Shown here: positions 5,877 to 33,629 of the stretch, in pieces | Layout of the letters: each line of letters opens with the position of its first letter | Numbering within the stretch: the stretch's first letter is position 1 | NCBI RefSeq assembly: GCF_964204645.1 | Contig: NC_134030.1 | Coordinates: 16,554,110-16,618,109 of the forward strand | From: Tubulanus polymorphus | Lineage: Eukaryota; Animalia; Nemertea | Direction: 5' to 3' | DNA length: 64,000 nucleotides | Notes under the pieces: model-generated | The model's input: the letters and a program-made list of their open reading frames with translations, nothing else | Told to the model about the DNA's origin: nothing | Database searches by the model: none | Position numbers and translations under genes: made by a program

Positions 5877-6911
5877 TTGAGCTGATACATTTACAGATCA
5901 CAAAGGTTGCATCTGCACCCCCCTGCCCTAGCACGATTCTGAATCAGTATCATTGTATGGTGTATTATTGTCCTGGGATTGGTGTACTAGAGCCAGGCAG
6001 TGGGTGGTCACCAGAGGCGCAGATTCCAGGGGCCATGGCCCCCTATTTTTGATTGGGCTTACTGAGTAAGTTACTTCCTCGGAAGGAAGCATATGGGAAT
6101 GTTACTGTATTAATGACTGTGAGCATCATTTAATACTGCAGTAACAGTAACACTTAGTGTAGTAGGCCTACAATTGGGCCTGTATAGGGCCTAATCGAAA
6201 ACTTGAATTTTAATTCAAAAATAAACACTGACTTAGCCTAATACGTACATGTATTCTTTAGTTCTTCTATGGACTGTACAGAAACTAAATACGTCTCGGA
6301 GGTCACGCTGCTCGAAATACGCTGCAAAACCATGACTGCCACTTGACTTAAGAAGTTCTTCTGCTGTCTTGAAGGCGATGTTGCGCGCCACGTCAATGCA
6401 ATGTGAAAAGGTCAAAACTGCCGCCAAATAACAATGAATTTGAAAAAAACCTCTTGGTTGATGGCGCCACCATACAGTATTATGCGATCGGCAATTGGCA
6501 AACTTGAACGTTTGGCATCGACAATTAGCAATCGGCAATGAGCAATCGGCATGTCCCTCCAGGTATTCGGTACACTGAAACAAAGATTCTACCGAGTCAG
6601 GGCATTCAGCTAGCAATTCATCATCGCTTATCAAATAATCCCATCACATATTTTTGTCCAAATCAATCGTCGTTATGTCGGGTTGTTCTCCATCATATGG
6701 GTGACCCCTAGTGAAAATTAGTTACGCTTTTAGTACACTAATTATTGGCCTACTAATTATTGATGTTGAAATAAAATTGGATCATGAGGCCATGTCATGT
6801 ATTGAGACATGTGATGATTTTAAGTAAAGAAGATTGATTTCATTAAGAATATTCGATTAATACAGTTGCTTATAACAATTTTTTAGTGCATTCAGATTGT
6901 ATTTTGGCGCT

Positions 6912-6996
6912 AGTAATAGGGAAAGTGGGCTTTCAGATCAGAGGTCGAAGGTCGACCACTCATCACCACAAGTAATTTTTTTCCCTTATAAATGGG
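6912..6996 (+). repeat. Left terminal inverted repeat of Maverick A
   Basis: Reverse complement of 23201-23285. It ends in TATAAATGGG, which includes the ATG at 6992. Confidence 0.95.
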
Positions 6997-7318
6997 AGAT
7001 AGAAAAGCATTCTCAGCAACAATAAATAACAGATTAAAACCAGCAAAAAAACAATTTGAAATAAAAAAGTTAATTGATGTTACAAAAGAAATTGAACATA
7101 AAATATTGAAATTAGAAAAGATAAAAACTAAATATGGAGAGAAAGTATCAGCGAATTTAAGTTACCGTAATGTTAGTACATCGCGAGAATTTAAAGTATT
7201 TTTACCCGATAAATGGGTTTCATTGAGTACAGAGGAATTAAAAGATTTAGAAGGATTTAAAATAATCTATCATGGAAAAAATGGAGACGGTCATCATGAT
7301 TTAGAAATTGTTGATTAA
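6992..7318 (+). CDS. Hypothetical Maverick protein (108 aa)
   Basis: Intact ORF that starts inside the TIR at TATAAATG. Confidence 0.6.
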   Translation: MGDRKAFSATINNRLKPAKKQFEIKKLIDVTKEIEHKILKLEKIKTKYGEKVSANLSYRNVSTSREFKVFLPDKWVSLSTEELKDLEGFKIIYHGKNGDGHHDLEIVD

Positions 7319-7624
7319 ATAAAAAATAAAAATAATGAATATCTAAAAATGACCTTAGTCGTTTTACGAACAACTACAATCATACAGCCAAACATCTGTT
7401 ACATGTTATTATAAGAGAGTGCTTCATTTGAATAATGATCGATCAAACAGGTGTTGCAATTCAACGTTGTTGTTATATTGGATAGCTAGCAGTTATATAA
7501 TAAGCGCGCAGTACATACAACACACACAGGATACATTCTCTCTCTCGTGATTAAAAGGAATATTTCAGTGTTTTTAAGGTAAGTTTTAGCAAAATTGCCC
7601 TATCCTCGACCTACAGAGTTTTCA

Positions 7625-7805
7625 GGGGATAAGCATCCCATTATTGAAAGGCGCCACGGGACGCTTATCCCCAGTCATTTCTACTTACACCCCCGCGACC
7701 CACGTTACCCGGGATCTCCTTCAATGATTGGCAGAAATCACATTATATTAAAGGCGCCTAATGTAATTTCTACCAATCTCGAAATTCAAACCGAAGGAGA
7801 AACCC
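7625..7805. ncRNA. Candidate structured non-coding RNA: two hairpins sharing a loop
   Basis: Stems 7625-7641/7656-7672 and 7726-7745/7759-7778. Loops tattgaaaggcgcc and tattaaaggcgcc. Outer stem tctccttc/gaaggaga. Confidence 0.5.
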
Positions 7806-8349
7806 GGAGAGTGGACGAAGGTGCATTTTCAAAATGCCTCTGCTGGCCAGAGCTACTCCAGCGTTGGAATAAATTGCCTTATATACTTAGCTAAAACACC
7901 TAAGTAAATGTTGTTGGTGTTTACTAAAGAAATATGTGAAATTTGAAATTATAAATTATTCCGAATGAAAAGAATATAGGAATGAAAACTGATAAATGAA
8001 TTATGGATTTTTAACTTAATTATGATATAATTTCTAATCAAATTAGTAATCAATTACCATGTTAATTGATTAACAAATTCAAATTCAAATATTCATTTTA
8101 GCATCACACCCAGTGCTGCCATCTTTCAATTTAAGAAAAAACTAATAATAAGAAACGACTGTTATACAATATTCAAGTAAAAACTTCAAATTAAAAAACA
8201 GAATAAATTAATAAAAATAATGAATATCTAGAATCCGAAATGACTTATCTGGACAATTTAATTGCTCCGCATAGATGGTGCCATAAACGGCACCCACACA
8301 GTGATAGACAAAAGTAGTGAGATATTCAATTATTTTTTTTGCTTTTTTT

Positions 8350-8709
8350 CTAAATATTAATCCATTTTTTTATTATCAATTTTGGAATTTCAGAAGTATT
8401 TTCATTTTTGATAGCAGTTGTTTCAGAATTATTAATATCATGAATTTTATTTGATTTCTTATACCAATTACACCCAATCAAAATGAATACAATTACAAAT
8501 CCAACTGTAAAATATAGACATTTATCAAATATTCTATTATTAGAAGGAGTAGAAATAACAATATTTTCACTATTTTTATTAACATTTTTATTACTTATTT
8601 TTTCTTTTACAGCTTTTTTATATTCTTGTGATTTAATTCCTAATTGCCGAGACCATTCAATTTGTTTCTGTGATCTCGGTTTTTTCTTCACTTCTTCCAC
8701 CTTGTTCAT
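8350..8709 (-). CDS. Small basic protein with one transmembrane helix
   Basis: Hydrophobic CLYFTVGFVIVFILIG segment, TAAATG start, homologue at 31422-31819. Confidence 0.7.
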   Translation of the reverse strand: MNKVEEVKKKPRSQKQIEWSRQLGIKSQEYKKAVKEKISNKNVNKNSENIVISTPSNNRIFDKCLYFTVGFVIVFILIGCNWYKKSNKIHDINNSETTAIKNENTSEIPKLIIKKWINI

Positions 8710-9248
8710 TTATTATAGAAATATTTTTACTTTCAATATTTGAAAATGTTATAACCCCAGTTGATAATAATGTCATAAATCCGCCTAATTGAAATAAGAA
8801 ATATCCAATCCATTTATTTAATTTAGTCATAACTAAATAATCATTTTTCAAATCGGAATATAATCTATTGTCATCTTCAATTGGTAGTATATAATTACAT
8901 AATTTACTATAACCTTTTACTACATTTTCTGATATCGGGTCATTAATTCTAGCTGTTCTCGCGGTTTCATAAATCTCAAATAATCTAATAATTTCATCTG
9001 ATTTCATTGTATCTAATTCATTATAAGTTAAATTTTTACCGATAAAATTTTTACATTTTCCAGATGCTATTAATATTTCTAATTGATGTTTACAATAAAG
9101 ATAATATTCATAATTATTATTTGTTGTCACATTTTTTAAAGCACCATCATCTGGAGTTAATTTTGTTTCTGTTATTCCTAAATCATCTAAAGTTTTTTTC
9201 AATTGGAACATCACCATTTTTAGATTTTATTTTCTTTTCACCTCCCAT
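8657..9248 (-). pseudogene. Conserved hypothetical Maverick protein (frameshift near the 5' end)
   Basis: Homologous to 30827-31429 (YEYYLYCKH.LE.LIA.GK). The true start is probably TATATAAATG at 9248. Confidence 0.7.
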
Positions 9249-9437
9249 TTATATAACAAAAAAATTAGTTGTGATGTTGCAACTAGAATTTAACTAGAAT
9301 GTAACTAAAAATATACTAGATTAACAAGCTAGTTAAAATATTGTTGAATTTTATTTGATTTTTGTTTCAAATACCAATAACTAGAATTCAACTAGAATGT
9401 AACTAAATATGTAATAGATGAACAAACCTGTTGAATT

Positions 9438-10045
9438 TAAATAAATTCATATTTAAATGGGTGTTGTAATCTAAATAGTAATTTTGATCTTTTAATATTT
9501 TTCAACTTATCCATATATTCATTATGTAAATCATGTGGAATAATATAATTTTCCTCAAGTGCATTTTTCATCGATTTTCTATCTTTATTGTAGAATAAAA
9601 CTAGAAATCTAATGTTTTCTCTAAAGTCTTTAACAATTGAATTATATTTTTGATTTAAAACCCATGTTGTTATCCCAAAATGTCTACCAGAAAAAGCTAA
9701 ATAACATTACTCACTCTCTCTAATTTTTGAATCATGTAAATTTGCACAATCATCTATAATGAATAATGTATTTGATCCTTTATAAATATCTATTGATATT
9801 TTAATACAATTATCTAAATTTTCTTTTACTCTTCTAGGATCTAATATAATAAATTTATTATTTTTAGTAATATTTCTGTCATAAGTTTGATTAAATTCAT
9901 GTGTTGGACAAAATAATACTATATTATCAAAATAGTTTTTATAAACAGTTTCTAATAAATTTAATATAAAATAAGTTTTTCCACAATTTGTTACGCCAGA
10001 AATTAACATATTATAAGGCTCAAGTATAAATAATTCCTTATTCAT
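9438..10045 (-). pseudogene. A32/FtsK-like genome packaging ATPase
   Basis: Walker A ISGVTNCGKT and Walker B FIIDD. After a premature stop at 9707 it continues CYLAFSGRHFGITTWVLNQKY. Confidence 0.9.
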
Positions 10046-11100
10046 TTATATATTTTTAATTTTACTTGATAATATCCATTTATTGAATTTATCTGGCCAT
10101 CCAACCCATTTTACTAAAGAATATTTTTTTCTTTTAACAGTTTTTGTTTTTAATACTCTTTCAATTTTATATTCTTGTTCTAGATTTTCAGTAGTTAAAC
10201 TTAATTCTTCTTCGTAAAAGTAGCCATCAACTTCTTTACCATCTAAATCTTCTAATTTATAGACATATGGTTTTGTTGTTATTACCTTTTTTATTTTATA
10301 TATTTCTCTAGTAAAATTTCGATCGTATCCTTTGTCAAATATCTTTTTATACTTAGAAATTCTAACATTTTGACCAACTTTAAATTTAGGTTCGCCAAAA
10401 TCATCTACAAGAAATGCTCCATATAAATTATTCCAAACAATTTCAGCATTTTCAGGTTTTCTAGCATCAATAGGTTTCATTCCAATAGAAGAATGATAAG
10501 ATGATTATTATATCCTTCTATCAATTTTGGTAAAACATCAATCCATTTAAAAGTATTATTTGCTGTAAAATATTTCCACATTCTTGTTCTTAATGTTCTA
10601 TTAAATCGTTCAACAACTGCTGCTTTTTTATCCGATTTTGTTGAAAAATATTTAATATTATGATTGTCTAAGAGTTCATGAACAAGTGAATTATCAAATT
10701 CTTTTCCATCATCAAATTGTATTTTTTCTGGTTTTAGTTTATCATCCGAAAGAAATCTTCTTAAAACATTTGATGTTTTACAGCATCTTTTCTATAAAGT
10801 GGGAAGCTCCATACATAACGACTAAAAATATCAATTATATTCAATAACCACCAATAATCATCATTATCTTTCTTAATATTTTTCATATCAATTAAATCTC
10901 CTTGCCACTGTTGATCTTCATAACTTACCATAGTTTGATGAGTTTTATATTTTCTAACAATTTTTTTATGTGTTGTATATGTTGGTTGTTCTAACATAAA
11001 TTCATTTATATCTTTATATTAATTGTATTAATTGTAAAGATATCTTTATAAATTTCTTAAATATTGTTCTTTAGTATTATTAGTTTTTTTAACCGCCCAT
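10046..11100 (-). pseudogene. Retroviral-like (rve) integrase with C-terminal chromodomain
   Basis: QWQGDLIDM, IDIFSRY, QFDDGKEF, VERFNRTL, and chromodomain YKIERVL..LVKWVGWPDKFNKWI. Several frameshifts. Confidence 0.93.
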
Positions 11101-11147
11101 TTATATATCCTTAATTTTAACTTCATATTTCTAATATTGAATACTAT

Positions 11148-12363
11148 CTAATTTACAATATTTAATTGTGCGTCAGATATAATATAAATGTGCATTTTTA
11201 AATTTTTGATTCCTTTATTCTTTGTCATGAATAATTGTATTCGATCTTTAGTGTTCTGTAGTTTTTTTCCAGAACCATGTAATGAATTATCCTCTACTGT
11301 TCTAAAATCTAACCATAATGCATATTTATTACCGGTATGATAATCAATTTGATTAATATTACAATTTTCAGATGATTTTACTTTTTCATTCATATAATGT
11401 TTTCTAATTTCTGGCCATTGATCAATCATTCTCATTCCTTGACAAAATATTTTATTTGCTATTCCTTCGATAGTTATTTCTACTTTTGTTATTTCAGGAT
11501 TATAATAATTATCAACATTTATTGCACCATTAGTATATGTTGCAATGGTAAAAAATATTAATATACCTTTAATAGATCTTCTTGGGAAGTTAATAATCTC
11601 ATTGATTATTTCATCATTTGCATTAATAGTTACAGTTTTAAATTTATCAATATAATCATATAATAATGAAAATCCTTGATTGTATTGAGTTTGAATTGTG
11701 TTAGCAATATTTTCATTAGTTACTGTGTCATATTCTAAACATATATTCGATAATTTGTAACCCATATCTTTAGCAACGCTAGATAATACAAATTCATTTA
11801 CAGGAGCAAATGTTATCTCAAATATAATATCTTCTTGAATTACATATTTATATAAAGGTGCATTATTATTTATCAATTCAAAGTCTAATGGAATTTTATA
11901 TTTGCTTCCATAAATTTTTTTTATCTGCGGCACGAGTTACTATTGCGTCATTAGCTCCTGATCTTAATTTATTTTGGTTTTCCGATTGAATGCCTTGAAA
12001 TATCATATTATTTCTATTTTCTTTAGTTAACCATAAATCTTTATAATGCATAAATAAATTATAATCATCTAATGAGAAAACTGTTTCTGGACCAATCTTT
12101 ATAGTTAATTTTTTAATCAAATATCTCCCAACATTATCGACAACATAATTATTATCATAACCAGTTACTTTTATATCGGCTGATAAATAAATACTTTTTG
12201 GAACATAAAAAGTATTTTGTGTTAATCTAGGAATTCTAACATATAAAGTTTCATCGGGATTAATATTTGAAGGATTATGAGTAATTATATGATGTGATCT
12301 TTCTGCTTTAATAGCATTAGATATTCTGGAAATCTTAGAAGGACTTATATAACTCCCACTCAT
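11148..12363 (-). pseudogene. Major capsid protein (double jelly-roll, Polinton/adintovirus type)
   Basis: ORFs 11896-12363 and 11148-11933 are joined by a frameshift in an A-run. Motifs HNPSNINPDETLYVRIP and YALWLDFRT..DNSLHGSG, about 400 aa in total. Confidence 0.8.
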
Positions 12364-12419
12364 TTATTTAACAAAAAAATTAATTATTTATTTTTTATTA
12401 TTTTTTCTTGATATCTTTT

Positions 12420-13135
12420 TGATATCATATTCACTAACCAAAAAATAATAGAACTTACAACTGTGATTAAAAATAAAATAATATGTTCAGCAGCAAAGTT
12501 AAGAATATTACCTGCAGATTTCAATATAAAACCAACAATTGATGCAATAATTCCTGGTTAAGCTGCAGCAGATTTTTTAGATAGTTCCCATAAATATTTT
12601 GCTAATTTCTTTAAACCATCTTTAACTTTATCTTGTATAGAATTATTATCATTCGGGGGTTTATCCGGTTTATTGGGAGTAGGAGTAGATTTCAAAGAAT
12701 TTGATATTGCTAAACCAATTGTTGTAAATAACATAGTTACAGCTGTTAGAATTGAAAGAATTGTTATTCCTTCTAATTTAAATAATAACTTTATTCTATC
12801 TTTTAATGATATTTCAGAATTTGGTTTTATCAACAAATCTTTAAAAATAACTTTTAATCTATTAATATTATAATAATATGATTTTAATAATAATTTAATT
12901 TCTTCTTTCTGTACTTCTAAATTATCTTTTAAATTATTAATTTCTTTTTCTAATCGTAATTCCTTTTGCCTATATTCTATTTCATCAATTACTTGATGAT
13001 CTAAATCAGACTTTAATTGTTCTATTTCTTTATTTTTATCAGTTAATTCTTTTTCTAAAGTTCCAATTTTAATATCTCTTATACTTTTATTATGTGCAAT
13101 TTTATCAGCTTCATTTCTTATACTAATAATTTCTC
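12420..13135 (-). pseudogene. Coiled-coil plus hydrophobic C-terminal virion-associated protein remnant
   Basis: Heptad-rich EKELTDKNKEIEQLK.. followed by LFKLEGITILSILTAV and KKSAAA*PGIIASIVGFIL. Confidence 0.5.
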
Positions 13136-13445
13136 TAATTGGTTAAATTATAATTTTGATATCTTACAATGTTTTCTGGAATCGATCTATTTTTATCATT
13201 ATGAATGGAATCTTCAAATAATACTTTGAATTGTTTCTGCGCATCGAATGAAGTGTTATCATTTCCAATTATTGGGGATCTTGTTTCAACTTGCGCACCT
13301 AAAATACATAATAAATAAGCTCTAATTGATTGATTTATTCTTTGTATACCAGCTTTAGTAAAACCTTCACTATTTTCTAAAATGAAATTAACCCAACCAT
13401 TATTGTTTTGTTGTTGTATATTATTATAATATTTTGGTAATTCAT
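13135..13445 (-). pseudogene. Internal fragment of a conserved Maverick gene whose 5' part probably survives at 32977-33606
   Basis: GFTKAGIQRINQSIRAYLLCILGAQ. It is fused by deletion to the end of the upstream ORF. Confidence 0.55.
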
Positions 13446-13858
13446 TCCAATAATTTAACTTGTTCTTCAACTGTTATATGACCATTTAAACTTATTATAT
13501 TATCTAGTGTATTTTTTAATTTATTAATTTCTTTTATATTAGTTTTAATTTTTTCTTTATTATTTTTTATATTTAATTTTGAACTTATACCAGTTAAAAC
13601 ACTTGAACTTAATCCTAATACGCCAATTGATATAGCTAAAGGTGTTAATGGCGAAAATATTGATAATGTTATTACAGAACTAATTGTAACCGAACCACTT
13701 ATAATCAAATAATATATAATTTTAGATTTTAAATATTTTTTCTTTTTAACTTTTAAATCATTTTCAAATTCTAATATTTGTTTTTCTAAATATATTTTTA
13801 ATTTAGTTTTATTTATATCATGAGGAATAATATCAATATTATCAACTTTATCATCCAT
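13442..13858 (-). CDS. Hydrophobic-hairpin membrane protein
   Basis: Two hydrophobic segments between coiled coils. Near-identical copy at about 33630-34048. Confidence 0.6.
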   Translation of the reverse strand: MDDKVDNIDIIPHDINKTKLKIYLEKQILEFENDLKVKKKKYLKSKIIYYLIISGSVTISSVITLSIFSPLTPLAISIGVLGLSSSVLTGISSKLNIKNNKEKIKTNIKEINKLKNTLDNIISLNGHITVEEQVKLLE

Positions 13859-13877
13859 TTATTTAGAAAAAAAATTA

Positions 13878-14340
13878 CTAATTAGTAAATCTATATGCTA
13901 CAAATATAACAATAACAGTTCCACCTAAAATCCATATTATTTCATTTTCTGTTGTTCTTTACTTGGGGTATAATAATCTGATAATTTAGGTTTGTATAGA
14001 TGTAATTTTTCTTTATTGGTTACTGCGTTATATAAACTCATTGCATCATCGACTGATTGAAAATCTCTGTGTGAAATCTTCTGATCATATAATGCCTTGT
14101 TAATAATTATATTAATATATAGTTTTGCCTCTTTTCTCCATATTCTTCTGCTGCTTTATTGTATTTTTCTAATGCTAAGTTATGTCTTCTTTGTTCTCCT
14201 AATGAACTATTTTTATCAATATGCTTGAATAAATAACCACCACCAGTAAATGCTAAAGCGTTAACAATTGCCGATCCTATAATAGTTATAATTGCGTTAA
14301 CAATTGCCGATCCTATAATAGTTATAATTGCAGAAGCCAT
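13878..14340 (-). pseudogene. Small virion/membrane protein (intact copy at 34068-34490)
   Basis: Same sequence as 34068-34490 plus a 36-bp tandem duplication (IITIIGSAIVNA twice) and frameshifts. Confidence 0.7.
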
Positions 14341-14364
14341 TTATTTAGTAAAATAATTACGCAT

Positions 14365-14586
14365 TTATATGGGAGGAATATATTTTTGTTTTTCTAAATA
14401 ATCAATAGTTAAATTAGATAGAGTAACTGCTAATGTTAATTTTAAGATATCATTTATATCAAATCTATCAACATTAACACTTCCCATTTTGAATACTTTT
14501 TTTAATACCATTGAATAACCAACAGTTCCAACTGATAGTAATGCTCCATTATATAATCCAGTTATTATCCACTTATTATCACTCAT
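14365..14586 (-). CDS. Small hydrophobic Maverick protein (73 aa)
   Basis: TAAATG start. Copy with an internal stop at 34515-34736. Confidence 0.65.
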   Translation of the reverse strand: MSDNKWIITGLYNGALLSVGTVGYSMVLKKVFKMGSVNVDRFDINDILKLTLAVTLSNLTIDYLEKQKYIPPI

Positions 14587-14943
14587 TTATTTATCAAAAA
14601 AATTACTATCATCAAAATATTTAGTTAACTTATTTATGATTAAATCAATATTTATTTCATTACTAGTTTCATTTGTATATATTTCAATTATTATTTTTTT
14701 AATATCATCGATGATAAAATCTTCATCTAATTCATAAAATCTTAAAGATTCGCTAATTAAATTAGTAATCTTTTCTACATTTAAAGTTTCTTTATCTATT
14801 GTTGTTTCATACTCAAATGTTGTTTCATTAGAAAATGCAATATTTTTGATATGTATAATTACATCATTAATGTTAAATTTCATTTCTTTCTCACGTTTAA
14901 AATCAAACCCAAAACATATACTCGGTCCAACAGTTATATTCAT
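14587..14943 (-). CDS. Hypothetical acidic Maverick protein (118 aa)
   Basis: TAAATG start. Its TAA stop abuts the next ATG. Disrupted copy at 34737-35093. Confidence 0.6.
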   Translation of the reverse strand: MNITVGPSICFGFDFKREKEMKFNINDVIIHIKNIAFSNETTFEYETTIDKETLNVEKITNLISESLRFYELDEDFIIDDIKKIIIEIYTNETSNEINIDLIINKLTKYFDDSNFFDK

Positions 14944-14959
14944 TTATATAGTGAAAAAA

Positions 14960-15666
14960 TTACTCTTTACATCTTATAACTAATTCATTAATTACGGGAA
15001 AGTTATTCAAATCAATTAAATATCCATTATGATTTCTTATTTCTAATTGAAAATTATTAAATTGTGGTATACAAGGTTTAAAATCACATTCAGCTAAATT
15101 ATAATTTATTTGCGTTCCAAATTGTTTAACATTTTTTAATGGTAAAATATTTAGTATACTAGAATTACAAATTGTATCTTTAGTTGCTTCAAATGTTTTT
15201 GTAGGATCAATTAAATTGCAATAAATATAGAAATGTGTGTAAGGTATTAAATTTGAGCTACCCTCTGCGTTTCCAGTAACAATACGCGGTTTAATTCCTA
15301 ACATTTTAGCTACTGGTTTGTTTACCATAAATTTATTTAGTTCATTGGCTAACTTTATTTTAATTTTATCAGAACTATCACTTTTTATAAATCTAATTGA
15401 AAAATTATCTTCACTTCCAAGTTTTAATCGTGCTTTCCGATTAATGTCTTGGGCTAATGTTTCTAAATTATATAACCCTAGTTTTAAAAATAGATGAAAC
15501 CATTTATTTATATTCTAATATGAATTAAAAAGTCTCTATGTTCAAAAGTTTTAGCCGATATATTATAAAAAGAATTACATAAACTTATATTTACTAATTT
15601 TAAATCTACACAATTCTTAAATTCTCTATCTAATTGAACTAGTAAATTATGTGATTTAATTACCAT
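14960..15666 (-). pseudogene. Probable minor capsid (penton) protein
   Basis: Homologue of the intact 250-aa ORF 35110-35862. FYIYCNLI and LEIRNHNGYLIDLNNFPV resemble Polinton minor capsid C-termini. Confidence 0.65.
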
Positions 15667-15730
15667 TATTTATAACATAAAAAAATTACCGCTCATCACT
15701 AAAAATTAATTTTAATAAAATTTTTTCTAA

Positions 15731-17056
15731 ATGAATAGATGAGAAGATAGGATGTGAAATTTGTGGTGAACTTCTAAGAAAAAGTAATATGGCTCGACAT
15801 ATGAAAAAACATGAAGAAAATTATAAACCCCTAAAATAAACTGCCCAAAATGTAATAAATTATTCTCAAGAAATTATGTTAAAAAACATTCAGAGAAGTG
15901 TAAAATTAATGGCGCAACGGCTAATGTTGATAGTAATGAAAGTAATAGTAATTCTGTTGAAGTTGAATCTGAAGTTATTTGGAAAAGACCTTTCTTATTC
16001 TATGACAAGGATAATATAAAAGATTATTTCTGTGAGCATTGTCGATAAAATATAGACCTGAAAATATCGAAAATTGGGAGAAACATCAATTTCGTAAAGT
16101 ACATATACATAAAATTTCTAATAAATTTGAAACTGAATTCAATGAAAGAAAAAATAAAATATTAGAAAAAATGAAATATGAGAAAACGTTGCCAGATAAT
16201 AAAGAAACAGTTGAAAAGTTAGAAAAGCAATATAATGAATTAACAAGAAAAACATATTATTGTAAATATTGTAAATTGATTATTACAGCAAGTAATTCAA
16301 ATCTACATAATAGAACAATAAAACATAAAGAAAACGTAAGTAAATACCAAGAGCTTAATGAAGATCTATTACCAAGAAATTATAAACAAAAATGCCCAAA
16401 ATGTTTTTATGCGACCTTAAGACAAGAGGGTACTGAGATATTTTGTGTTGATTGTGGATGGCAAAGGAATTTATGGGTGAAGAAAAAACTAGAGATTTTC
16501 TCATAGAACCAAAATTAAATTATCTAGATGAAATTTTTAAAATATTTTCTATAGAAGATCATACACCAGAATATAAGCAATGGCTTGAAAAAATGAAAAT
16601 AATAGAAAATAAAAATGGTGAAATAACTAAAAAAGATATTATAAAAAGAATTATTCCATCAACATTTTAACACAAAACAAAAGAAAATGTATTTATATTT
16701 ATTATTTAACGATTATTATGAAAAACCTAAATTAACAGAAGAAGATATGGAAAATATAAAAAAAACATTCAAACAAATACTAATGTATCATTTGGAAAAT
16801 AGAATAACAGATTCAATTAATTATGAATTATTTCAAATAAGATTGTAAATTATTTAAACATCGATATTATAATTCCATTTGACGAATTAACAAACAAAAA
16901 GAAACGAAGAGAGCGATATGAAATGTGGTACAAGATAGAACTTTATTTAAATGAGAAAAATGAAATGGAAGAACCTAAACAAATTATACAAGAACAATTA
17001 AATGAAAATGAAGAAGCCAATAGTGATTTCGAGTATGATGATATTGATTTTCTGTT
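15731..17056 (+). pseudogene. Multi-zinc-finger protein(s), convergent with pPolB
   Basis: CEICG..HMKKH, CPKC, CKYC..HNRTIKH and CPKC..CVDC motifs across frameshifted ORFs. TAAATG start at 15731. Confidence 0.55.
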
Positions 17057-17512
17057 TTAATGGCCATAAGGTAATGTTTTTATACCATCATCTAAAATAT
17101 GCCTTTTATCATTGAATGGATTCAAACTAGTTTTTTCAACTTCATTAATGTACATCTCGTGATTAAACAATCTTAAACAATTCATTTTATGTTTCATTAC
17201 AATTGAGTTATATAAACACTTTATATAATCTTGAAATTCTATATGTTTATCAACCACATGTTTTGTTATTCCTTTTACCTTTTTAGCTTCATGATCTTTT
17301 GTTCTATAACTATACATTTTACTTCTTATCCCAACAAATTAAATCATTTCATCACCCCCTAATTCATCTTTAAACTTACTAGGAATCTTTTTATTATCAT
17401 TGCTAAATAGTTCATGATCTTTGGGATAATTGCTAAGATCAAAATGATGTTTTAATGTTTTTAAGTCTTTTGTTATGTCATTTGTCTTGATTTTTAGTAT
17501 GTAACTGTCAGT

Positions 17513-18555
17513 ATTGAAATCCACAGTTGAATGTGCCATCTTCAGTTGATATATCATAGACATAATCTGATGGGTTATATATTTCAAATAAATCTTTAAC
17601 TTCTTCAGTTAAATCTTTTTCTGCGTGGCTTAAATTAAAGCAATTTGGTTTAGATTTAATCAATCCAATATTCATATTGAAGCCTAATGAATTACATAAT
17701 ATATTTAACCCTGATATAGCAACTTTTCCTTTCTGTGCAAAGGCTATCTTTTTATCCTTTGTAAATTTTTTAGCACCATCTGCTGCGTAGAATCCAATGA
17801 AGAACCATTTTCTTAAATTGTTTTTTGCATTTAGTACATAATCAGGAACTATCTTTTCTTTAGTTGAAGTATTACTTTTCACTATTGCATGAATATAGAA
17901 TTCATCATTATATTTTATGGCAAAATCTTTAGGATTATTTACAAGTATTCTATAAACTGCTGATGATTTCATAACATCCATGATTTTAAATGTTTTATGT
18001 GAATAAACTTCTTCACAGAATTTCTTAATTCTTTCTAATAATTTCAAGTCTTGATTGCATAAATACCAACAATATTTATTACCCCAAACATAATTATACA
18101 CACCTGCTGAACCATCACCCATGAAAAATCCTTTGATAAAATATTCTTTTTCTTCTAATGTTTCAGGTTCTATATTTTAAATATTATCAATTATTTCATC
18201 AAATGACATATGATTCATTCTTTGGAAAAATCTCTTATGTAATAATTCTCCAATTTTTATATCAGTTGGTTTTATTTCATTACCATTTCGTTTAATCAAA
18301 CTATGATCTTCTGTAACATCTACAAACTCTAATTTAGTTCTAACTCTATAGATTTTCTAATTTGTTTAATGCCTAATGATATTCTTTAATTTTTTCCATC
18401 CATTTCTTGTCCAAACATCCATTAAACCATTTATTTGTATTAATTTCACCATATGAAATATAACATTCATTTTGTTTTGGAATTATTTCTGAAATTCTTC
18501 TTATCAATATTTTATCATTACATTTTAATAATATTGGGGTGTCAGCTGTTACAGA
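17513..18555 (-). mobile_element. Intein with LAGLIDADG homing endonuclease in pPolB motif C (decayed)
   Basis: YFD|SVTADTPILL (block A), VDVTEDHSL (block B), IKGFFMGDGS and FIGFYAADG (LAGLIDADG blocks), YVYDISTEDGTF (block F), and N|TDS at the C-terminal junction. Confidence 0.92.
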
Positions 18556-21540
18556 ATCAAAATATAATATTTCAATATGCTTTTCTCCAAAAAGTGGTTG
18601 TAAAACATTATAATAAAAATCATACATTAATAATTTTGATACTTCTAAAACAGTTGAACCAATGAATATAGGTTTATTAAATTTCATTGACGTTCTTTAT
18701 AATTTAACTGCTGTTAAATAATCTTCAAATCTTTTATTTCCTAAATGTCTAGGACTTGATTGTAAATGTCTTGATCGTTCAGAATTATTTACTAATTCAA
18801 TATCATTTCTATTTCTAATATTTTCACATGTTTTACCATAAAAACTATTATTCATTAATTTGAAGAAATCTTTTTCAAAATCTGTTTTTGATATTGTTCT
18901 CTGTTGAGTATTGAAATCTATATATTTTTCTAACCACTTCGATTGATTTAATTCAATATATCTATGTACTTTCTTTAATTTCATTCCTTGTTATAGATAA
19001 AATTCTAACATTCTATAATGAACGTCCTCGACATTGTAATTATTATTTTGAGTAAGTTTAATTTTTCTGTAAAAACATGATCTTTCGGTTTTATTTTCTT
19101 CTGGTATTCACTTAAATAACTATCATCTACGGTTAAATGTTCTGGGCAATAAGGTAAGTTTCTAGTTTTAAACTTTATATTTTCAGGATATTCTAAATCA
19201 ACTACAAAGAAATAACCAATTGGTGCTTCATCTTTTAAACTCATAATTGCGCTTTCCCAATCAGTTTTATCATCATTTTCAACTTCTGTTAATATAAAAT
19301 TTTTATATGGTTGAGGTTGCATCATTGCCCAACCATATAAATTATCGGCGTCAATATATAATAATTTATATTCATCATTTGCTTTAAAATATATATCTCC
19401 CATAACACCACTAATTCCACCTCTAATTGATTTTTCAAATAATAAAACCATGTCTGGTTCTTTTAATAAATCTAATTCTACATTTGTGTATTTTAAACCA
19501 CATTGCCAGGTTAAACCAGGACTAGAGTAGCAATAACAAGGATCAACATTAAAATGATTCAAATTAACTTCTCTAAATTTTTCAAATATGTCAGCCAATA
19601 TCATAACATCTGATTTTAAATATAAATCAACTAATTCACCATGATTTTTCATCTTAAAATAGTTCCAAATATTTAATGTTCTATTAAACACTTCATCTTT
19701 CACATACTCCTCTTTTAATTGATCATAAAATTGATCTTTTAATAATTCTGTTACATTAAAATCATTGTGTGTTTTATAAAATGAATAAGGAATTGCACCT
19801 TTATATCTCAATAATTTAAAATCTTGTTCATTTGGATAATAATATCGAGTTATAACAAAATCATTATCAACTAAACTTTTTGCTAAATTATCTAATGAAC
19901 TTGCTAGAAATCTATAAGAATCTAAAAATCTAATGCAACCAAATTGAAATGAAATATAATTTTCAGATGTTTTAGCTAATAGTTTAAAATCATATTTTCT
20001 TACATTTACACTATTCATAGCATTATATTCTTCTATTTCTTGATTAATTGCGCCCAATTTTCCCGATAATTGTTTTTAAATAGATGGGTATCATAGCCTG
20101 ATAAATTATGAAATAATATTGGTACGAAATTAACTTTCTTAGCTTGTAAATTGCAATCTTCATGAGCAGCTCCACGATATTTTGAATTTAAATGATCATG
20201 ATCTCTAACTTTTTTATCAAATGAATAAAAACGTTTTTCACAGTAACAACAATGAGTTGCGTAATTAAAATCAATTTCATCTTCTTTTGTCATAACTATT
20301 CTTTTATTTTTGTTTAATAATTTTGCAAAATCACTTTCTAATTCAATCATTTTGTCACAAAAATCATTAACTGCATTTTCACCTCTAAAAGAAATATATT
20401 GACTTTCATATAATTTAGGATAATTTGATTTTATATAAATTCCATAAGCAGCAGCTCTGTGATGAACTTTTTAAATTGTATTTATAATTGGTGGGTCTTG
20501 TGTTGTGTCTTCATTTTATTCATTTCCTTTATCCATTGATTTTAATAATTGCTTTTTGTTATATATTTCTTTTCTATCTTGATCGGTTAATTCTTTATTC
20601 AACGATTCAAAATCCCCATAAATTACAAATGGAACGATATTCTTAAATTTATGATTAGTACATTTCAATTTATAATCTTTTTCTGTTGGCATTATTAATT
20701 TACAAAAATCTTTATTATCACATAATTCTTTATGTTTTAATAATGTATTCTCAGTCATTAATTTAGATATTTTCTACATAGATAAATTTTATGATGATGA
20801 TCACTTTCTGTTCTAAAGAATAAATCAATTTGTTTTAACCACATATAATGTTCATTTTCATCTTTTTTGTAATATAACAAATCTATAGCATTTTCATCAT
20901 CATAATATTCTGTTAAATATAAAGCTTCCAATGTATAATCTTTAATATTTTCACCTTTTGTCTTTGGTAATTGCATTAATTCGAATATTTTTATTTTTAA
21001 ATTATTAACTTTTTCTATTTTAGGAATCATTTTTATAGTTACTGGATATTGATCAATTTTATATAATGTTTCATATTTCCGGTAATCTGTTATTCTACAA
21101 ACATTTTCCTGTGTTGGATGTAAGCAACTAATAATTGACCATAGAAAACATTTATTATCTTCATTTTGAATATTTATTACTGCTTTTGTTATAAATGGTA
21201 ATTTAATATAAGATGATGCTTTTATATCCTCCTTTTCTGTTGTAAAGTTTGAATCATTTTTAAACATTTTATTACTTTTTGATGTTTTATTTCTTTTTAA
21301 TCCAAAAATATAATTTCATTCAATGTTAAGCCAGAACCCTCAAAATATCTTTCTTCAATATGACGTTCAAATTCATTAAATATTTTTTCTAACTTCTCTT
21401 TTATTTGTGTTTTTGAAATTATTTCTTCAGAAAGTGTTTGAATATTATAATCCATTTTATCTTCTGACTTTAAAAAACTTACTTTCCCAGAGATACTAAT
21501 TTTTGGATATTCAACATCTGTTATCAAATCTAGTATTTTT

Positions 21541-22698
21541 TGACGCTTTATAAAACGTTACCATTATGAAACCTAAACAATGCTAACCATTCAGCGTCAT
21601 TTTACAAACGACAGCCGTAAATCGATGTGCAAAACGTCACAGGTTTATGTGTACACAAACAAGCTATCTGGCAAAATATTATTGACATAGATGTAGAATG
21701 GCTTCCTGTGATTATATAATGACCTATATTTGAACGTCGAAATGTTATATTGCATTGAATATCATTAGAACACGTATTGTAATAGTAAAGGATGTATGAT
21801 TATATCAGAAGCGGCAGGCATAAATAGAAATGATAAGTAAATCGGATTATTCGATTAAATGGCGGATGTATACACGATGCGGAAGTCCGATATAAAAGTC
21901 AGACCCTGACGTGGGCATGCCGGTGGAATGACGAAGCTATCTACGATGTGTGTAGGGCCGGCGTGAATTTCATCAGCGGCTACAAGCGGTCAATATGAAA
22001 ATGTGTAAACATATAATTTCAATATTCAATCGTTTGTGAAAATATGTTTGATATTAGGAGTATGCAAGTTTCGTGAGATTAGCAATTTATAAAAGCATAG
22101 CTGTCATATACGGCTCCGTGTCCTCTGATGGCATGTGTATTAGGTGACAATTCAATTCAATTCTTTATTGATCCTTATTACTTTGAAATTCCGGGATAAA
22201 ATTCCCAAATTCAATAAATACAAATTTTAAAATAAATTAATACAACATACATGACACACGGGTAATTCATACAGAACAACATAAGCATGTTATTTTAATG
22301 ACAATGTCTACTTCAACTCACCCAGACTCAAGACTCTAGGATATCGAGTGACAGCCAAACCCGTGGCCCGGGACCGGGCCGGCTGGCTAGGCCACACGAT
22401 ATGCTCGAAGTCATGATGAAGCAGACATCAGAAGAGCTCTTTCTTCATCCATGGAGGCAATGAAGTTGCAGACCAGCTTAGAGGCATAAGTAAATGAAGT
22501 CGGTCGCAAGTTCGCGATCAATTATTGAGAATTTTCAATAAAAAAATTTAAACCACTACCAGAGTCGAAGACCTGTATCATCTACCCAATCTCCAAATCT
22601 CATCATTCCCCAAATTTCTTAAAACTTCGATTTCAAATTTGCAATTGCACATTAGCTTAGCTTAGCCCAGAAATTCTACATTTTTTTCCCTGGCGTCA
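21541..22698. mobile_element. About 1.16-kb non-coding insertion into the pPolB 5' region
   Basis: Abrupt composition change. Inverted ends TGACGC...GCGTCA. Removing it joins FRKL-LKILDLITDVEYPK in frame. Confidence 0.6.
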
Positions 22699-23200
22699 AA
22701 TAATTTTCTAAAATTAATTATCTTGTTTCTATTATTTCATTAAATTTACTAAAATCTTCTATTGTTGTACCTTTAAAAAATCTTTTATTTCAAATGAATC
22801 AATATAATTTCTAACATTTTCCATGTAAGGTTTATTTGAAATGGATTTAGTTTTTGAAGTTGGTTTTTTTACTTGTTGAGGTTTATCATCAAAATAATCT
22901 TTTCCTAAAACATTATTACTCAAATTTTGATGGTGTTTTTGTGATTCGAGATGTCTATTATAATTCCTTTTGACTATAAATTCATTACAAACTTCATATT
23001 TTATTTCATCCACATTCATATTTTCTAATCGTTCTTTTCTTTCATTGGAATTTTCTGGAGTTTCAAAATCTATTACATTTTTTATATGATTTGCAGATTT
23101 TTCATGTGATTTTTGGGATTTATCGATGTGTTTTTTACAATATGAACAATAATATTGATTTTTATTAACATTATTATTTTCTGGCTGGTGTTCATTCTCC

Positions 23201-23285
23201 CCCATTTATAAGAGAAAAAAATTACTTGTGGTGATGAGTGGACGACCTTAAACCTCTGATCTGAAAGCCCACTTTTCCTATTACT
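23201..23285 (-). repeat. Right terminal inverted repeat of Maverick A
   Basis: Ends CCTATTACT followed by the TSD GGCGCT. Contains the ATG at 23205. Confidence 0.95.
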
Positions 23286-23899
23286 GGCGCTCAGATGCTA
23301 TCCCCTTAACAACCATTTCAACGGCACCCTAGCTGCTGTTGATAATTCACAGTGAGTAGGTTACTACGCAAGTGTTTTCGCAAATAAGGGTCGCTGTGTA
23401 AGCTGTGGGCGCAACAAAACTGCAATTTCCCACAATGACAGGAGTTGCCACGCGGATGACGAACTGTAGAAAGCCGTACGAGCTCGGATGCTACAAGGGA
23501 GATCATAGGCAGCGTTTATTGTTTCACGTCCCTTAGTTGAAGAGTCCATGGTTTTAGTAAGATGCAAACGTAGAGATCGCCTGCATTTTCTGTGAGAAAC
23601 TTTAAACATATAATTTCCTTATATATCATTCTTGTTCATATGCCGGGTTGCGTCTACTTATTGAAGAACTATCTTTCAGGAATGCGTGTTCTCACTTTGT
23701 TATTGTTATTTTTGGTTTCGATTTTGACTTAGGGCCTCTTTTTGGCGAACCGTAGGTTTCCCTGTGCAAACCGTCTGGAGAAGGAGTTTTCATTGAAAAT
23801 AAATAGAGTACCGGTGTGTCAACAAGGCACAAACATTGGCTATTGATAATAGTGTTGATTTTTGGTGTCATGGTTTGGCTTATAAGTTCTTGAGCCCAT

Positions 23900-27639: not shown

Positions 27640-28042
27640 AGTAATAGGGGTAATAGGCTTTCAAATCAAAGGTCGAACGGTCGAGCTCATTAAAAAACAA
27701 AATATTAAAAGTAATTTAAAACTATAATATATTTTCATAACCGTGTGCATTTCGTATTATAACTAAATATTTATTCTAAGATATTAATAATTTTAATTTT
27801 AAAAGCATATTGTATTAAATCAATTGGTCGCTCCGCTTCGCTACCGCTCCGCGACCAATTGATTTATTACAATACACAAATTCATAATCAAATATATTTT
27901 AATAATAATAATTATTCTATTATTCAACTGAAATGCACACGGTTATGAAAATATATTATAGTTTTAAATTACTTTTAATATTTTGTTTTTAATGAACTTG
28001 ACCATTCAACCTTTAACCTGAAAGCCTATCACCCCTATTACT
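27640..28042. repeat. 403-bp fold-back with a nested central hairpin
   Basis: Arms 27640-27753 / 27930-28042. Inner aatcaattggtcgc / gcgaccaattgatt. Confidence 0.9.
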
Positions 28043-28275
28043 CTTAAAATATTCATATACATGAATAACATTTAAATTGACAGATTATTCAATATAAAGG
28101 TGTGAGCTCTTATAGAATAGATATATAGATATATTTTAAACATTATTTCAATATTCATATTTGTATGAGTTAGATTTTTAAACATTAAAAGTGTTAGTAA
28201 AGTGTGATTTAAATAATTCATATATAAATCATTGAACTTCTAAAATCAATTTAGTAAAAAAATATGTATAATAAA

Positions 28276-28943
28276 TCGAATCAGAACAACCACAAACTAT
28301 CAATATTACAAATAACACTGGCGTCATAAATATATACTACAAGAAGTGTTCTAAGTGTGAATTAGATAAATTAGCTTTAACAGAATTTAGTAAGCGTAAG
28401 ATTAGCAAAGATAGTTTTCAATATTGCTGTAAAACTTGTTTTAAACTATATACCAAACAATACCGAGAAGATAATATAGAAAATTATAATTATTATATGG
28501 CAGAATATATAAGAGATAAGATATAAAACAGATCTTAATTTTAGATTGAAACAATGTTTAAGATCTAGATTAACACAATTATTCAACAAAGAAACACATT
28601 CAGAAACACTATCTAATTTATTGGGTTGTTCAGATGAATTCTTAAAATCATGGATTTTTTTCAATTCGATGATGAAATGAATATAGATAATTATGGTGAA
28701 TACTTTCATATTGATCACGTGTTGCCGATTTCTAAATTTGACATGAGTGATGATTATAATAAGAAGCTAATCTGGAACTGGAGAAATTTAAGACCTTTAG
28801 AAAAGAAATAAAATATAATTAAATCTAACAAACTAGATATGAAATTATATTTAGATTAACTAGATTAAGCAAAGACATTTGTTGAATTATGGAATAGTAT
28901 TTCACAGAATCAACCGCATTCTGAGGTTTTAATCAGTGGTTAG
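28276..28943 (+). pseudogene. HNH endonuclease with N-terminal zinc ribbon
   Basis: KKCSKC..CKTC, LLGCS, HIDHVLPISKFD and WRNLRPL..N..KSNK. The start codon appears mutated (TAAATC) and there are frameshifts. Confidence 0.8.
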
Positions 28944-29309
28944 AAAGCTGGCAATTCTATTTGAGCTTTGTATGTCTATAATACATAGCTTTTGCTTACT
29001 ACTAAAACATATGTTGCCAAATATATCTTGTTTTCAATTCTAAAGAATTAATAAACTTCATCATAAAAAACATCTGTTACAATCCAGGCAAACATGCAGA
29101 AATAATTAGTTTAGTCGAACGTGCGCCACGTCGGCAGTTAGAAATCAACTTTCACATACATAGTACGTATTGGATATTCTCTCTCAAAACACAGTTTACA
29201 GTTCTAAATCCAAATGTAAGTACCGTTTTTTGTAGTTATTATGAAGTAGGGAAACCTTTAAACATATTTAAGTACAGTAATTCATTTTCACGGCATCTTT
29301 TAGATTAAA

Positions 29310-29776
29310 ATGGAATACAGAGATCGACCAGAAATTCCAAGTCAACCATCGGAAGAGGAACCAGAAACGATGGATAGTGAAACACAGGAATCAATAGAAA
29401 TGGAGGATGAAACTCTCGTAATTGACGAACAAACTTCACAAAATTACAAGAACATTTGGATTATCATCAAGAAATCGTGAAAATTCTGAGTGATGTAATA
29501 CATAATAAACAATTACCGCGCGAACTACAATTACCAAAATTACCAGCAACGCGACTTAAATTGCTGTTGGGACTCAAAGAATCGAAAACTAAGAAAATGA
29601 GTGGAGATATCAGTGCCGGCTTTGAAAGAAAACTGAGAAGAGTAGGTAGATTAATAAAATATGAAAAATTCAAAATATTAGGATTAGCATTTAGTGAAGT
29701 AGTCAGATATTTACCAGAAATTAAAGAAATGATTGGAAACAATCCAGTAATTAAAGAATTCTGGACAAAATTATAA
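29310..29776 (+). pseudogene. Cargo gene (about 155 aa, acidic N-terminus) with a putative 5'UTR intron at 29216-29303
   Basis: MEYRDRPEIPSQPSEEEPE.. is joined by one frameshift to ORF 29456-29776. gtaagt...tttag lies just upstream. Confidence 0.5.
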
Positions 29777-29877
29777 ATTATAACACTGAAGGTCTTTGTA
29801 ATATAGATATATCAAAAACATGTAATCTCGATTGTATATATCTGATTTAATATTGTATTGTTTACTGTAAACTAAGT

Positions 29878-30094
29878 ATTGCGCAATAACCGGTCCGATT
29901 GGACCGCTTTTCTATTGTTCTCCATTGTTCTATTATCGATCGTTGTTGACGGAAACAGCTGCTCAATATTGATTGGTTACAGTTCTATGTTTGAATGTTG
30001 TAGTTTACAGAATAAAAATATAACTGTGCATTGCGCAATAGCCGGTCCGATTGGACCGCTTTTCTATTGTTCTCCATTGTTCTATTATCGATCG
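29878..30094. promoter_or_regulatory. Duplicated 65-bp module with C/EBP-, CCAAT- and SOX-like sites
   Basis: 29878-29942 and 30030-30094 differ at one base. Each contains ATTGCGCAAT, cggtccgattggaccg and two ATTGTT. Confidence 0.45.
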
Positions 30095-30301
30095 CTAAAA
30101 TTTACATAATAAATATATGTGTTTATGGAATAATATTTCCACCAGTCGTTTCGTTGAATTGATTTTCAGTTGAGGATTTATTATCGAGGATCCGAAATGA
30201 CTTATCAAAAGCAGCGAGGAATGAAAAAGGATGACGTTAGTCGAAGAAATGGAAGAAGATTCTAAAATGTGAATCAATTTTAATAAAAATTTGATTTATA
30301 A

Positions 30302-30517
30302 ATGGAAAGGAATGATGAATACAATAAAAAACTTATTTGGAATCGGAAAAATTTAAGACCTCTTGAAAAGAAAGAAAATAAAAAAAAATCTTATAAACTA
30401 GATTTACAGTTATATTTAGAACAGTTAACAAAGGCAAAGAAATTTATTGATCAATGGAACAATGATCCAAAAAATGAACAATACGTTGAGGAATTTGATA
30501 TCAAGGATCCGAAATGA
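30302..30517 (+). CDS. Duplicated C-terminal part of the HNH protein
   Basis: YNKKLIWNRKNLRPLEKKEN matches about 28750-28900. It has its own TATAAATG start. Confidence 0.6.
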   Translation: MERNDEYNKKLIWNRKNLRPLEKKENKKKSYKLDLQLYLEQLTKAKKFIDQWNNDPKNEQYVEEFDIKDPK

Positions 30518-30826
30518 CATCTGGACAGTTATAATTACTGCTCCTAATAGATAAACAAAAGTAGTGAGATATCAAATAGAATTCAAAAAAAAAATATATT
30601 AAAAAAACAATAACTTCAACTAGCCATTATTTCTATTTTAATTTTTAATATTTTCTTTTACAATTCTTTTCAAAAGAGAATACTTTATATCGCAAATAAA
30701 AAATACTAAAAAACAATAACTAATACTAAAATTCTTTACCTTTAACTAAGCTAGTATCAATCTAAAGAGATACTGGTATCATTTTATAATACTTATATTT
30801 TTTTTTCACTTTTTTCTCTAATATAA

Positions 30827-31429
30827 ATGTCAAAGAAATCGAGTAAGAATAGTATTGATATTGAAAAGACATTACATGATTTGGGTATAAGTGATAATAA
30901 AGATACAGTTGTAACTAATTGTGCTCAAGTTAATTGTAATATTGATTATGAATACTATTTATATTGTAAACACCATCTTGAATTACTAATTGCTGGCGGG
31001 AAATCTAAGGATTTCTTGGGAAAAATAATAACTTTTCAAGAATTAGATGCTATGAAACCAGATAAAGTAATAGAATATTTTAAGATTTACGAAAAAGTTA
31101 GATTAGCTAGAATAAATTATTTTATTTCAGATGGTATTGTCAAATGTTACTCTAAGTTATGTAACCAGTTAATACCAATTGATGATGAAAATAAATTATA
31201 TAGTGATTTGAAAAATTACTACTTAGTTATGACTGAATTACAAAAATGGGTCGGATATGCTTCATTTCAATTAGGATCGGTTATGACATTAATTTCTACT
31301 GGTGTCATAACATTTCCGAACATCAAACCTATGGAATATAAATCAGGTAAGAACGAAACAGATGTACTACAACCAAACCGTGAAACAGAAAATGAATCAG
31401 AACAAAAATTAACTAAAATAAATGAGTGA
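30827..31429 (+). CDS. Conserved hypothetical Maverick protein (200 aa)
   Basis: Homologue of 8657-9248, with TAAATG start. Confidence 0.75.
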   Translation: MSKKSSKNSIDIEKTLHDLGISDNKDTVVTNCAQVNCNIDYEYYLYCKHHLELLIAGGKSKDFLGKIITFQELDAMKPDKVIEYFKIYEKVRLARINYFISDGIVKCYSKLCNQLIPIDDENKLYSDLKNYYLVMTELQKWVGYASFQLGSVMTLISTGVITFPNIKPMEYKSGKNETDVLQPNRETENESEQKLTKINE

Positions 31430-31819
31430 TGGAGTTAAGAAAAAGGCTAGATCCGAGAAACAAATTAAATGGGCAAGAGAATTAGGTAAAAGATCTTCAG
31501 AATTAAGAAAAAAGCTAAGAAAAAGAAATTAACTGATATAAATGAATCACAGAAATTATCTGATATTAATTCAAATAATAATCCATCTGATTTTTCTAAT
31601 AGTGGAAGAAATAATTACTTATATATTACAATTGGGTTAATCACAATTATTATATTCTCTGGTGTAATATATAAATCAAAATTCAAATCTGATGATAAAG
31701 ATGATTCCAATGATGATCGGAAACTTAGTTATCCGTGTACAGACAATAAACCTATTATACCAGAAAATAAGTCAAATCATAAAACCATTGAAACTAAATC
31801 TAAATTATTAATGGATTAA
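31422..31819 (+). pseudogene. Small TM protein homologous to 8350-8709
   Basis: MSDGVKKKARSEKQIKWARELG.., with a frameshift. Confidence 0.6.
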
Positions 31820-31825
31820 AATAAG

Positions 31826-32934: not shown

Positions 32935-32976
32935 AATTTAATGTTTCTAAATCCTTTGTTTTTATTTTACCATAAC

Positions 32977-33606
32977 CTAATTTATTATTATAGATATTAT
33001 AAAAAAAATATTAGATGGTATGGGAAGTGCACAATATTCTGCAATCTTTTTAGGGCAAGGAAGTGATCTTATTGTTCCTATTTTTGTTCTAAAATCAGAA
33101 TTATTTATATCTATATTAAATTCATTACAAATTTTATAAAACTTTGATAAATTAATATTATTATCTAATTCTTTAAAATATCTAGATCCTGGGAAAGCGC
33201 ACTCTAATTCATTTAATATTATTCTGATTTGAAAGTATGTATGAAATCTAAATAAACTTTGAATTAATTTATATTTAGAATTATTCAAATGATCATTCCA
33301 ACTAATTCCACAACCTGTTGTTGCACAATAAACAGCAAAATTTAATTGGTTCTGCCAATACTTCATATTAGATTTTAATAACCATTGTTTTTCATCTTTC
33401 AATTTTTTAAAATTAATTAAATATACATGAAATATATTTTCCATCTTTGCATTAAAATTATAAGTTTCAGTAACATAAATTTTTTAATTAGTTAATGAAT
33501 CTAAAACTTCATTTCTATATGTAATATCTTTATTAAAATCTATTGCTGGAATATTATATTTAATTGATTTATTATATTGGAAAGCTTTTGAAAAACTATC
33601 TACCAT
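32977..33606 (-). pseudogene. Conserved Maverick protein, N-terminal part
   Basis: YWQNQLNFAVYCATTGCGIS. TAAATG start at 33606, one internal stop. Confidence 0.6.
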
Positions 33607-33629
33607 TTATATAATTAAAAAATTAATAA

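Follow-up and report, generated by a model that had tools for sequence, protein, structure and literature searches.

Twin hairpins with a common GGCGCC loop in a Maverick element of Tubulanus polymorphus: a candidate Maverick-encoded structured RNA

A GC-rich island near one end of a Maverick/Polinton element in the nemertean Tubulanus polymorphus appears to be selected for a single-strand structure on its minus strand, a reading to which we give a probability of about 0.9 on the basis of pair-keeping changes between two subfamilies of copies. We propose that the island most probably encodes a viral non-coding RNA of a new kind, carried in an accessory cassette of the element. Mavericks have so far been described by their proteins; if the island is indeed a selected RNA gene, they invest in RNA-level interaction with the host as free viruses do, and the finding bears on whether Mavericks live as viruses. 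All coordinates refer to the window, the 64,000-nucleotide stretch of contig NC_134030.1 that was analyzed.

Results

The Maverick element and its genes

The Maverick (6912..23285, unstranded) has broken genes and is recognizable by its inverted ends, target-site duplication and Pfam matches. Its terminal inverted repeats (6907-6999 versus 23290-23198) match at 92% and are accompanied by a 6-bp target-site duplication at 6906-6911 and 23286-23291. ORF fragments matched pPolB, chromo and A32 ATPase families; matches to the integrase and the capsid N-terminus both fell below the cut-off, and no adenain-type protease was matched by Pfam among the 44 ORFs scanned, the genes being broken. A related metagenome locus, L001, carries an intact form of the same gene set. 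The Maverick context proposed in the initial annotation is thus borne out, as is its description of a GC-rich island in an AT-rich element (GC 0.46 in the island versus 0.25 in the Maverick). Most Maverick genes lie on the minus strand and are directed toward the island, which follows the last ORF on that strand (8350-8709) at a distance of 470-760 nt. These upstream genes have candidate poly(A) signals at 8369-8374 and 8257-8262.

Several other features of the element and its relatives were recorded. Small ORFs at 16171-16506 and 22759-23205 encode U1-type zinc fingers, possible RNA-binding partners. A second Maverick at 28000-35900 is partial and rearranged, with two 73-nt repeats at 29870 and 30022; its 33624-35806 region is 90% alike to 13427-15658. 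Gene order varies among L001, two further metagenome loci (L003 and L005) and the window Maverick, and an ORF at L001:10340-10981 resembles a deoxynucleoside kinase by eye.

Two hairpins in a larger predicted fold

On the minus strand, hairpin 1 (7625-7641/7656-7672) has 17 pairs and hairpin 2 (7726-7745/7759-7778) has 20, the two being separated by 53 nt. Loop 1 (7642-7655) and loop 2 (7746-7758) both carry GGCGCC at their 5' edge, and the minus strand is predicted to leave them open: P(unpaired) is 0.91-1.0 in loop 1 and exceeds 0.97 for the GGCGCC of loop 2. The hexamer is self-complementary, as are 64 of the 4096 possible hexamers. Both stems, the GGCGCC-containing loop common to them and an outer stem around hairpin 2 (7715-7722/7793-7800) are present as first annotated, and random loop pairs had a common 9-nt block in 7 of 50,000 draws. 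Likewise, the four A-C stem columns noted on the plus strand are indeed G-U on the minus strand. The stems had been described as unrelated, which holds in part but not wholly: in the minus-strand 3' arms, 8 of the 10 loop-proximal bases are common to both hairpins, a likeness reached in 515 of 100,000 shuffles. This partial likeness suggests that the two hairpins probably arose by an ancient duplication. The target-site duplication at 6906-6911 equals the loop hexamer but for one base, probably by coincidence.

The hairpins are parts of a larger predicted structure of ~260 nt (7591..7856, minus strand), whose ends we infer from a TATA-like box, a terminal stem and a run of four U residues. The predicted three-way junction joins the terminal stem P1 (7852-7838 with 7618-7605; lowest pair probability 0.53-0.93 by segment), hairpin 1 and a long irregular arm, P2-P6 (7676..7836), with 38 predicted pairs and lowest pair probabilities of 0.79-0.98. 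The outer stem belongs to this arm. From a second predicted junction on the arm branch a small hairpin and hairpin 2, the latter predicted to stack flush on the arm. Within the fold, 7688-7683 is the sole minus-strand GTAAGT in 6900-9000; it is unchanged in the second subfamily described below and may be a U1 site or a chance occurrence.

Folding of both strands, as the initial annotation had suggested, points to the minus strand and to stability beyond chance. Across 7580-7890, none of 100 shuffles folded as well on either strand, with z-scores of -8.5 (minus) and -4.2 (plus); for 7591..7856 on the minus strand, z was -8.56 and none of 200 shuffles was as stable. Over 7590-7862, the minus fold has 95 pairs including 16 G-U, relative to 71 pairs including 1 G-U for the plus fold. 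Under DNA parameters, too, both strands fold significantly (z -6.7 on minus and -5.2 on plus). Among 483 segments of 100 nt from both Mavericks, those of the island rank second and third by energy, and the segment at 7712 has the best z (-4.9) among the 25 most stable segments that were shuffled.

A second GC-rich (0.44), ORF-free stretch at 22250-22560 is predicted to fold into one long, irregular hairpin (z -4.5 on minus and -4.1 on plus), which makes it a candidate for a second structured RNA. The two folded islands occupy mirror positions, 679-971 and 724-1034 nt from the nearer Maverick end. They have no sequence likeness to each other, and 22250-22560 has no Rfam match. Non-coding sequence of raised GC also occurs at 21550-22150, upstream of the polymerase gene, where the segments tested fold no better than shuffles.

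Covariation between two subfamilies

The copies represented in genomic reads fall into two main subfamilies within this one species, of which subfamily B accounts for ~45% of reads; the comparison draws on read variant tables. Relative to the window, B has 28 differences over 7614-7776, all on one contig (X3 record 14) with 0 gaps, and the changes are therefore phased and the helix lengths kept. In the 37 core stem pairs, 14 changes are found, comprising four compensatory doubles and six singles. Together they leave 0 mismatches on the minus strand and 6 on the plus strand. The doubles are all in hairpin 2, at 7727/7777, 7731/7773, 7735/7769 and 7738/7766 (the last a transversion pair); the change at 7777 lies outside the aligned part, where it is given by the B contigs' loose end and by one X5 row, and without it there are three doubles. 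Hairpin 2 has one further single change, which gives G-U on the minus strand. Hairpin 1 has five singles, of which three give G-U on the minus strand and two turn G-U into Watson-Crick pairs, and the pair that extends it, 7623/7674, is a further compensatory double. Across the window and B, all 8 of the 8 non-Watson-Crick stem columns are G-U on the minus strand.

When the changes were permuted within stems in 200,000 trials, 37 trials left no minus-strand mismatch, 689 had four doubles and 25 had both. The permutation omitted linker changes and the minor or subfamily-A rows 7673, 7684, 7706, 7708 and 7732. Of these, 7732 retains its pair and 7673 creates an additional G-U, whereas 7684 and 7706 fall at unpaired positions; at 7708 the commoner subfamily-A letter breaks one terminal G-U of the arm. 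The search for covariation across copies that had been suggested at the outset was therefore favorable, and pair-keeping changes on the minus strand support the selection on structure that had been inferred from one copy.

The loops follow a different pattern. Loop 1 differs in B at 1 of 14 nt (7648, outside GGCGCC) and loop 2 at 0 of 13, in keeping with the selection on a loop motif that was first suggested; both GGCGCC hexamers are unchanged. This is 1 change in 27 loop nt relative to 14 in 74 stem nt (p 0.048), or to 27 in 127 nt of stems and linker (Fisher p 0.02). Within the stems, each arm of hairpin 2 is changed at 4-5 of 20 places and the 3' arm of hairpin 1 at 1 of 17 nt. The linker has five unpaired transversions, relative to only a compensated one in the stems. 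The long-range stems receive no covariation score because B diverges beyond alignment after 7776, though in the B loose ends the outer stem is, by eye, still possible.

Two features near the hairpins did not withstand the comparison. The island was said to be bounded by repeats; 12-nt direct repeats are present (7592-7603 and 7871-7882, plus strand, 11/12 identical) but are probably not functional, the left copy being replaced in B (loose ends before 7614, by eye). The linker also resembles hairpin 2 over 11 nt, which hinted at a switch, but this likeness is lost in B and the idea was rejected.

Candidate transcription signals

A TATATAA box on the minus strand (7879..7885), a candidate promoter, precedes the start of the terminal stem by 33 nt. 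A run of four U residues (7591..7594, minus), a candidate Pol III stop, follows this stem, and the corresponding A-run is kept in the B loose ends by eye. An internal U4 at 7834-7831 (minus) could stop Pol III early. By the usual A- and B-box consensus sequences, no exact B box occurs on either island strand, and none within one mismatch on the minus strand. Rfam gave 2 chance-level matches only for the left island (E 3.6 and 8.9). A tRNA-like head suggested by eye was dropped, ARAGORN finding 0 genes in the window. On balance, these signals lead us to favor the island as a transcript of its own, with moderate confidence.

The plus strand of the same region has signals of its own. A TATA-like box, a strong match to a splice donor at 7579, an acceptor-like site at ~8100 and AATAAA at 8202/8210 are distributed over 7493-7584 and 8088-8215, and a spliced non-coding transcript antisense to the island is possible. 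The promoter-intron arrangement is weakly similar to 29060-29310 of the second Maverick (7/500 and 16/500 shuffles).

Copies, cassette and distribution

Genomic read depth in X5 is 20-26 in the flank and 500-720 in the island, which corresponds to ~25-30 copies if the flank is single-copy. Depth is continuous between the island and its Maverick flanks, and the left loose ends enter the same Maverick-like flank, both of which argue against a separate host repeat, the identification that would have undone the initial proposal. Similarly, the island lacks the features of an independent SINE or MITE, with Maverick-like depth and flanks and no tRNA; rare copies outside the element are conceivable.

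The island is part of an accessory cassette (7318..8247, unstranded) flanked by ~40-bp direct repeats at 7318-7357 and 8202-8247. The cassette is skipped, with a joint from 7320 to 8202, in 44 X5 reads and one X1 contig. In run X1, Maverick flanks have roughly tenfold the depth of the cassette (contig depths being rough), which suggests that many family members there have no cassette or a diverged form. A 45-nt stretch at 8270-8316, which contains a small hairpin with arms resembling the loop hexamer, is missing from other copies (joint 8270 to 8316). An intergenic motif starting ATCCGAAAT is conserved at 8233, 30190, 30507 and L001:2454, that is, in both Mavericks and a relative, and is associated with cassette edges, duplications and deletions.

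The island-bearing element is known so far from one species. Six related metagenome loci (35,187 bases of partial elements, 52-67% protein identity) contain no GGCGCC, no 250-nt stretch of at least 40% GC and no blastn match to the island; in L001, L003 and L005, homologues of the upstream genes have other genes after them, without the island. No clear homologue was found in the second Maverick at 28000-35900, where 13/500 and 175/500 shuffles scored as high. Searches with twin-loop patterns returned 0 matches in viral contigs and prokaryote genomes, blastn of the island against 50,697 phage records gave no match, and 4 protein-led scans of viral contigs gave 0 loci.

Discussion

A proposed viral RNA

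The minus-strand structure probably acts as RNA rather than DNA. We propose that transcription would start from the TATA box at 7885, after upstream mRNAs end at the poly(A) signals near 8374 or 8262, and would yield a stand-alone minus-strand RNA of ~260 nt. Its wobble-containing helices of 17 and 20 pairs could serve as sequence-free mimics of dsRNA with a fixed length; stems that are free in sequence but keep their pairing and length fit helices that are read by shape. The two palindromic loops could pair, within or between molecules, and lock this shape, and the RNA could act, like adenovirus VA RNA, as a decoy for host proteins of dsRNA sensing or RNAi. The decoy role is tentative.

Pairing of the GGCGCC loops with each other has about an even chance. 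The island has a conserved GC palindrome exposed in a predicted loop, as kissing sites do, and within the RNA neither loop has a stronger partner than its counterpart (-11.7 to -13.3 kcal, versus -7.9 or weaker elsewhere). The hexamers are invariant and can therefore give no covariation signal for the contact. Hairpin 1, a 6-bp kiss and hairpin 2 would sum to 43-45 pairs, relative to 38-45 steps of the arm between the junctions, so that the geometry would allow a closed shape of two helices. The predicted flush stacking, on the other hand, would point hairpin 2 away from hairpin 1, which disfavors an intramolecular kiss and favors an intermolecular one.

A more elaborate model, which we regard as unlikely in its entirety, combines these elements in an RNA gene whose architecture has not been described before. 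Two paralogous struts with kissing palindromic loops would close into a compact particle of two helices, or join head to tail as multimers, and so mimic dsRNA without ends and block RNA sensing by the host. Such an RNA would have arisen independently of VA as its counterpart in integrating relatives of adenoviruses, and possibly as one of two such RNAs in the Maverick. The RNA is short and easily transcribed, and both kissing and decoy activity are directly testable.

Comparison with known systems

By analogy, an RNA from the island would most plausibly work like viral RNAs of the VA and EBER type. Adenovirus VA RNA I/II, as described in the sources cited, is likewise a non-coding GC-rich unit of a linear dsDNA virus with a protein-primed polymerase (PMC6599070, PMC7589676, PMC4378190). 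Similarly, the island is predicted to have paired ends, a U4 on the 3' side and a wobble-rich helix of ~20 pairs at a three-way junction. VA-I is reported to act through a helix of 20 bp or more that is rich in wobble pairs, and to inhibit PKR via a wobble-rich stack of 30 layers, just under activation length (PMC6599070); in the island, hairpin 2 and the stem next to it would stack to 31 pairs. The same source describes the conserved apical loop of VA-I as a promoter box at the DNA level rather than a contact made by the RNA (PMC6599070), and by that precedent the island loop could be a DNA-level promoter element. However, the island is longer than VA RNA (~260 versus ~160 nt), has an upstream TATA box and two paralogous hairpins with one common palindromic loop, and lacks a B box, a GGGU/ACCC tetrastem and an Rfam match; by eye, ACCC does not occur in its minus-strand sequence. 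The Epstein-Barr virus EBER1/2 RNAs are also viral structured RNAs that offer several stem-loops to one partner, L22 binding three stem-loops of EBER1 (PMC4378190), but the island has no sequence or Rfam match to them and belongs to another virus group.

The loops themselves recall retroviral dimer initiation sites of MPMV and HIV, which display a 6-nt GC palindrome in a hairpin loop (PMC3884649). The island differs in having two copies per unit and loops of 13-14 nt in which the palindrome directly adjoins the 5' strand of the stem, and in serving an element that packages no RNA genome. The MPMV primer-binding site likewise contains GGCGCC (PMC3884649), and pairing of the loop with a tRNA 3' end is therefore conceivable. 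Finally, foamy-virus dumbbell pri-miRNAs (PMC7693620) and the tRNA-pre-miRNA chimeras of MHV68 (PMC4378190) also place two hairpins in one short unit; relative to these, the island hairpins are 53 nt apart in a nested fold, the arms vary and the loops are fixed, and there is no tRNA. The main texts searched, mostly of papers available without subscription and including PMC6431247, PMC8502044 and PMC11071296, contain no report of a Maverick-encoded structured RNA.

Alternative explanations

The island could instead be a 3'-terminal cis element of read-through mRNAs that stabilizes messages, ends them or aids their translation. Its position downstream of the last minus-strand ORF, on the strand that folds, and the weakness of the Pol III signals fit this explanation, which we nevertheless consider rather unlikely: candidate poly(A) signals lie upstream of the island, the fold comes with paired ends and a separate TATA box, and the upstream-gene homologues in L001, L003 and L005 have no island after them. 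Capture of a host small-RNA gene or a retroposed structured repeat as cargo, with the fold selected before or after capture, would account for the contrast in GC, the optional cassette and 12-nt flanking repeats that resemble a target duplication. We judge it decidedly unlikely, given that neither Rfam nor the tRNA search matched the island, that B has lost the left repeat, that island and flanks are continuous in read depth, that loose ends are Maverick-like and that the compensation arose between Maverick subfamilies. A structure of the displaced minus strand in single-stranded DNA, serving replication, packaging or integration, is consistent with the significant DNA fold (z -6.7) and with a second folded island at mirror distance. 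It is improbable, as G-U pairs favor RNA over DNA and the 16 found here suit RNA better, and the two islands have no sequence in common; the relatives and deletion copies without the island further indicate that it is not a core cis signal.

A miRNA or siRNA-like precursor was among the functions first suggested, and two hairpins of 48-53 nt with related 3' arms, that of hairpin 1 having a single change, could suit a dumbbell-like precursor as in foamy viruses or MHV68. In the usual pre-miRNA pattern, the mature arm is conserved and the loop variable. The reverse is found here, the arms of hairpin 2 varying and the loops being fixed; in addition, the predicted fold has no regular lower stem, and no arm matches elsewhere in the window with up to four mismatches. 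We therefore hold this origin to be very improbable. Lastly, and with the least credence, the pattern could have arisen with no selection, template-switch repair of inverted repeats producing the doubles and strand-biased deamination the G-U bias. All 6 of the 6 single changes are the transitions expected from minus-strand deamination, but the explanation requires two unrelated processes, leaves the fixed loops and the nested 95-pair fold unexplained, and does not fit the contrast between unpaired transversions in the linker and only a compensated one in the stems.
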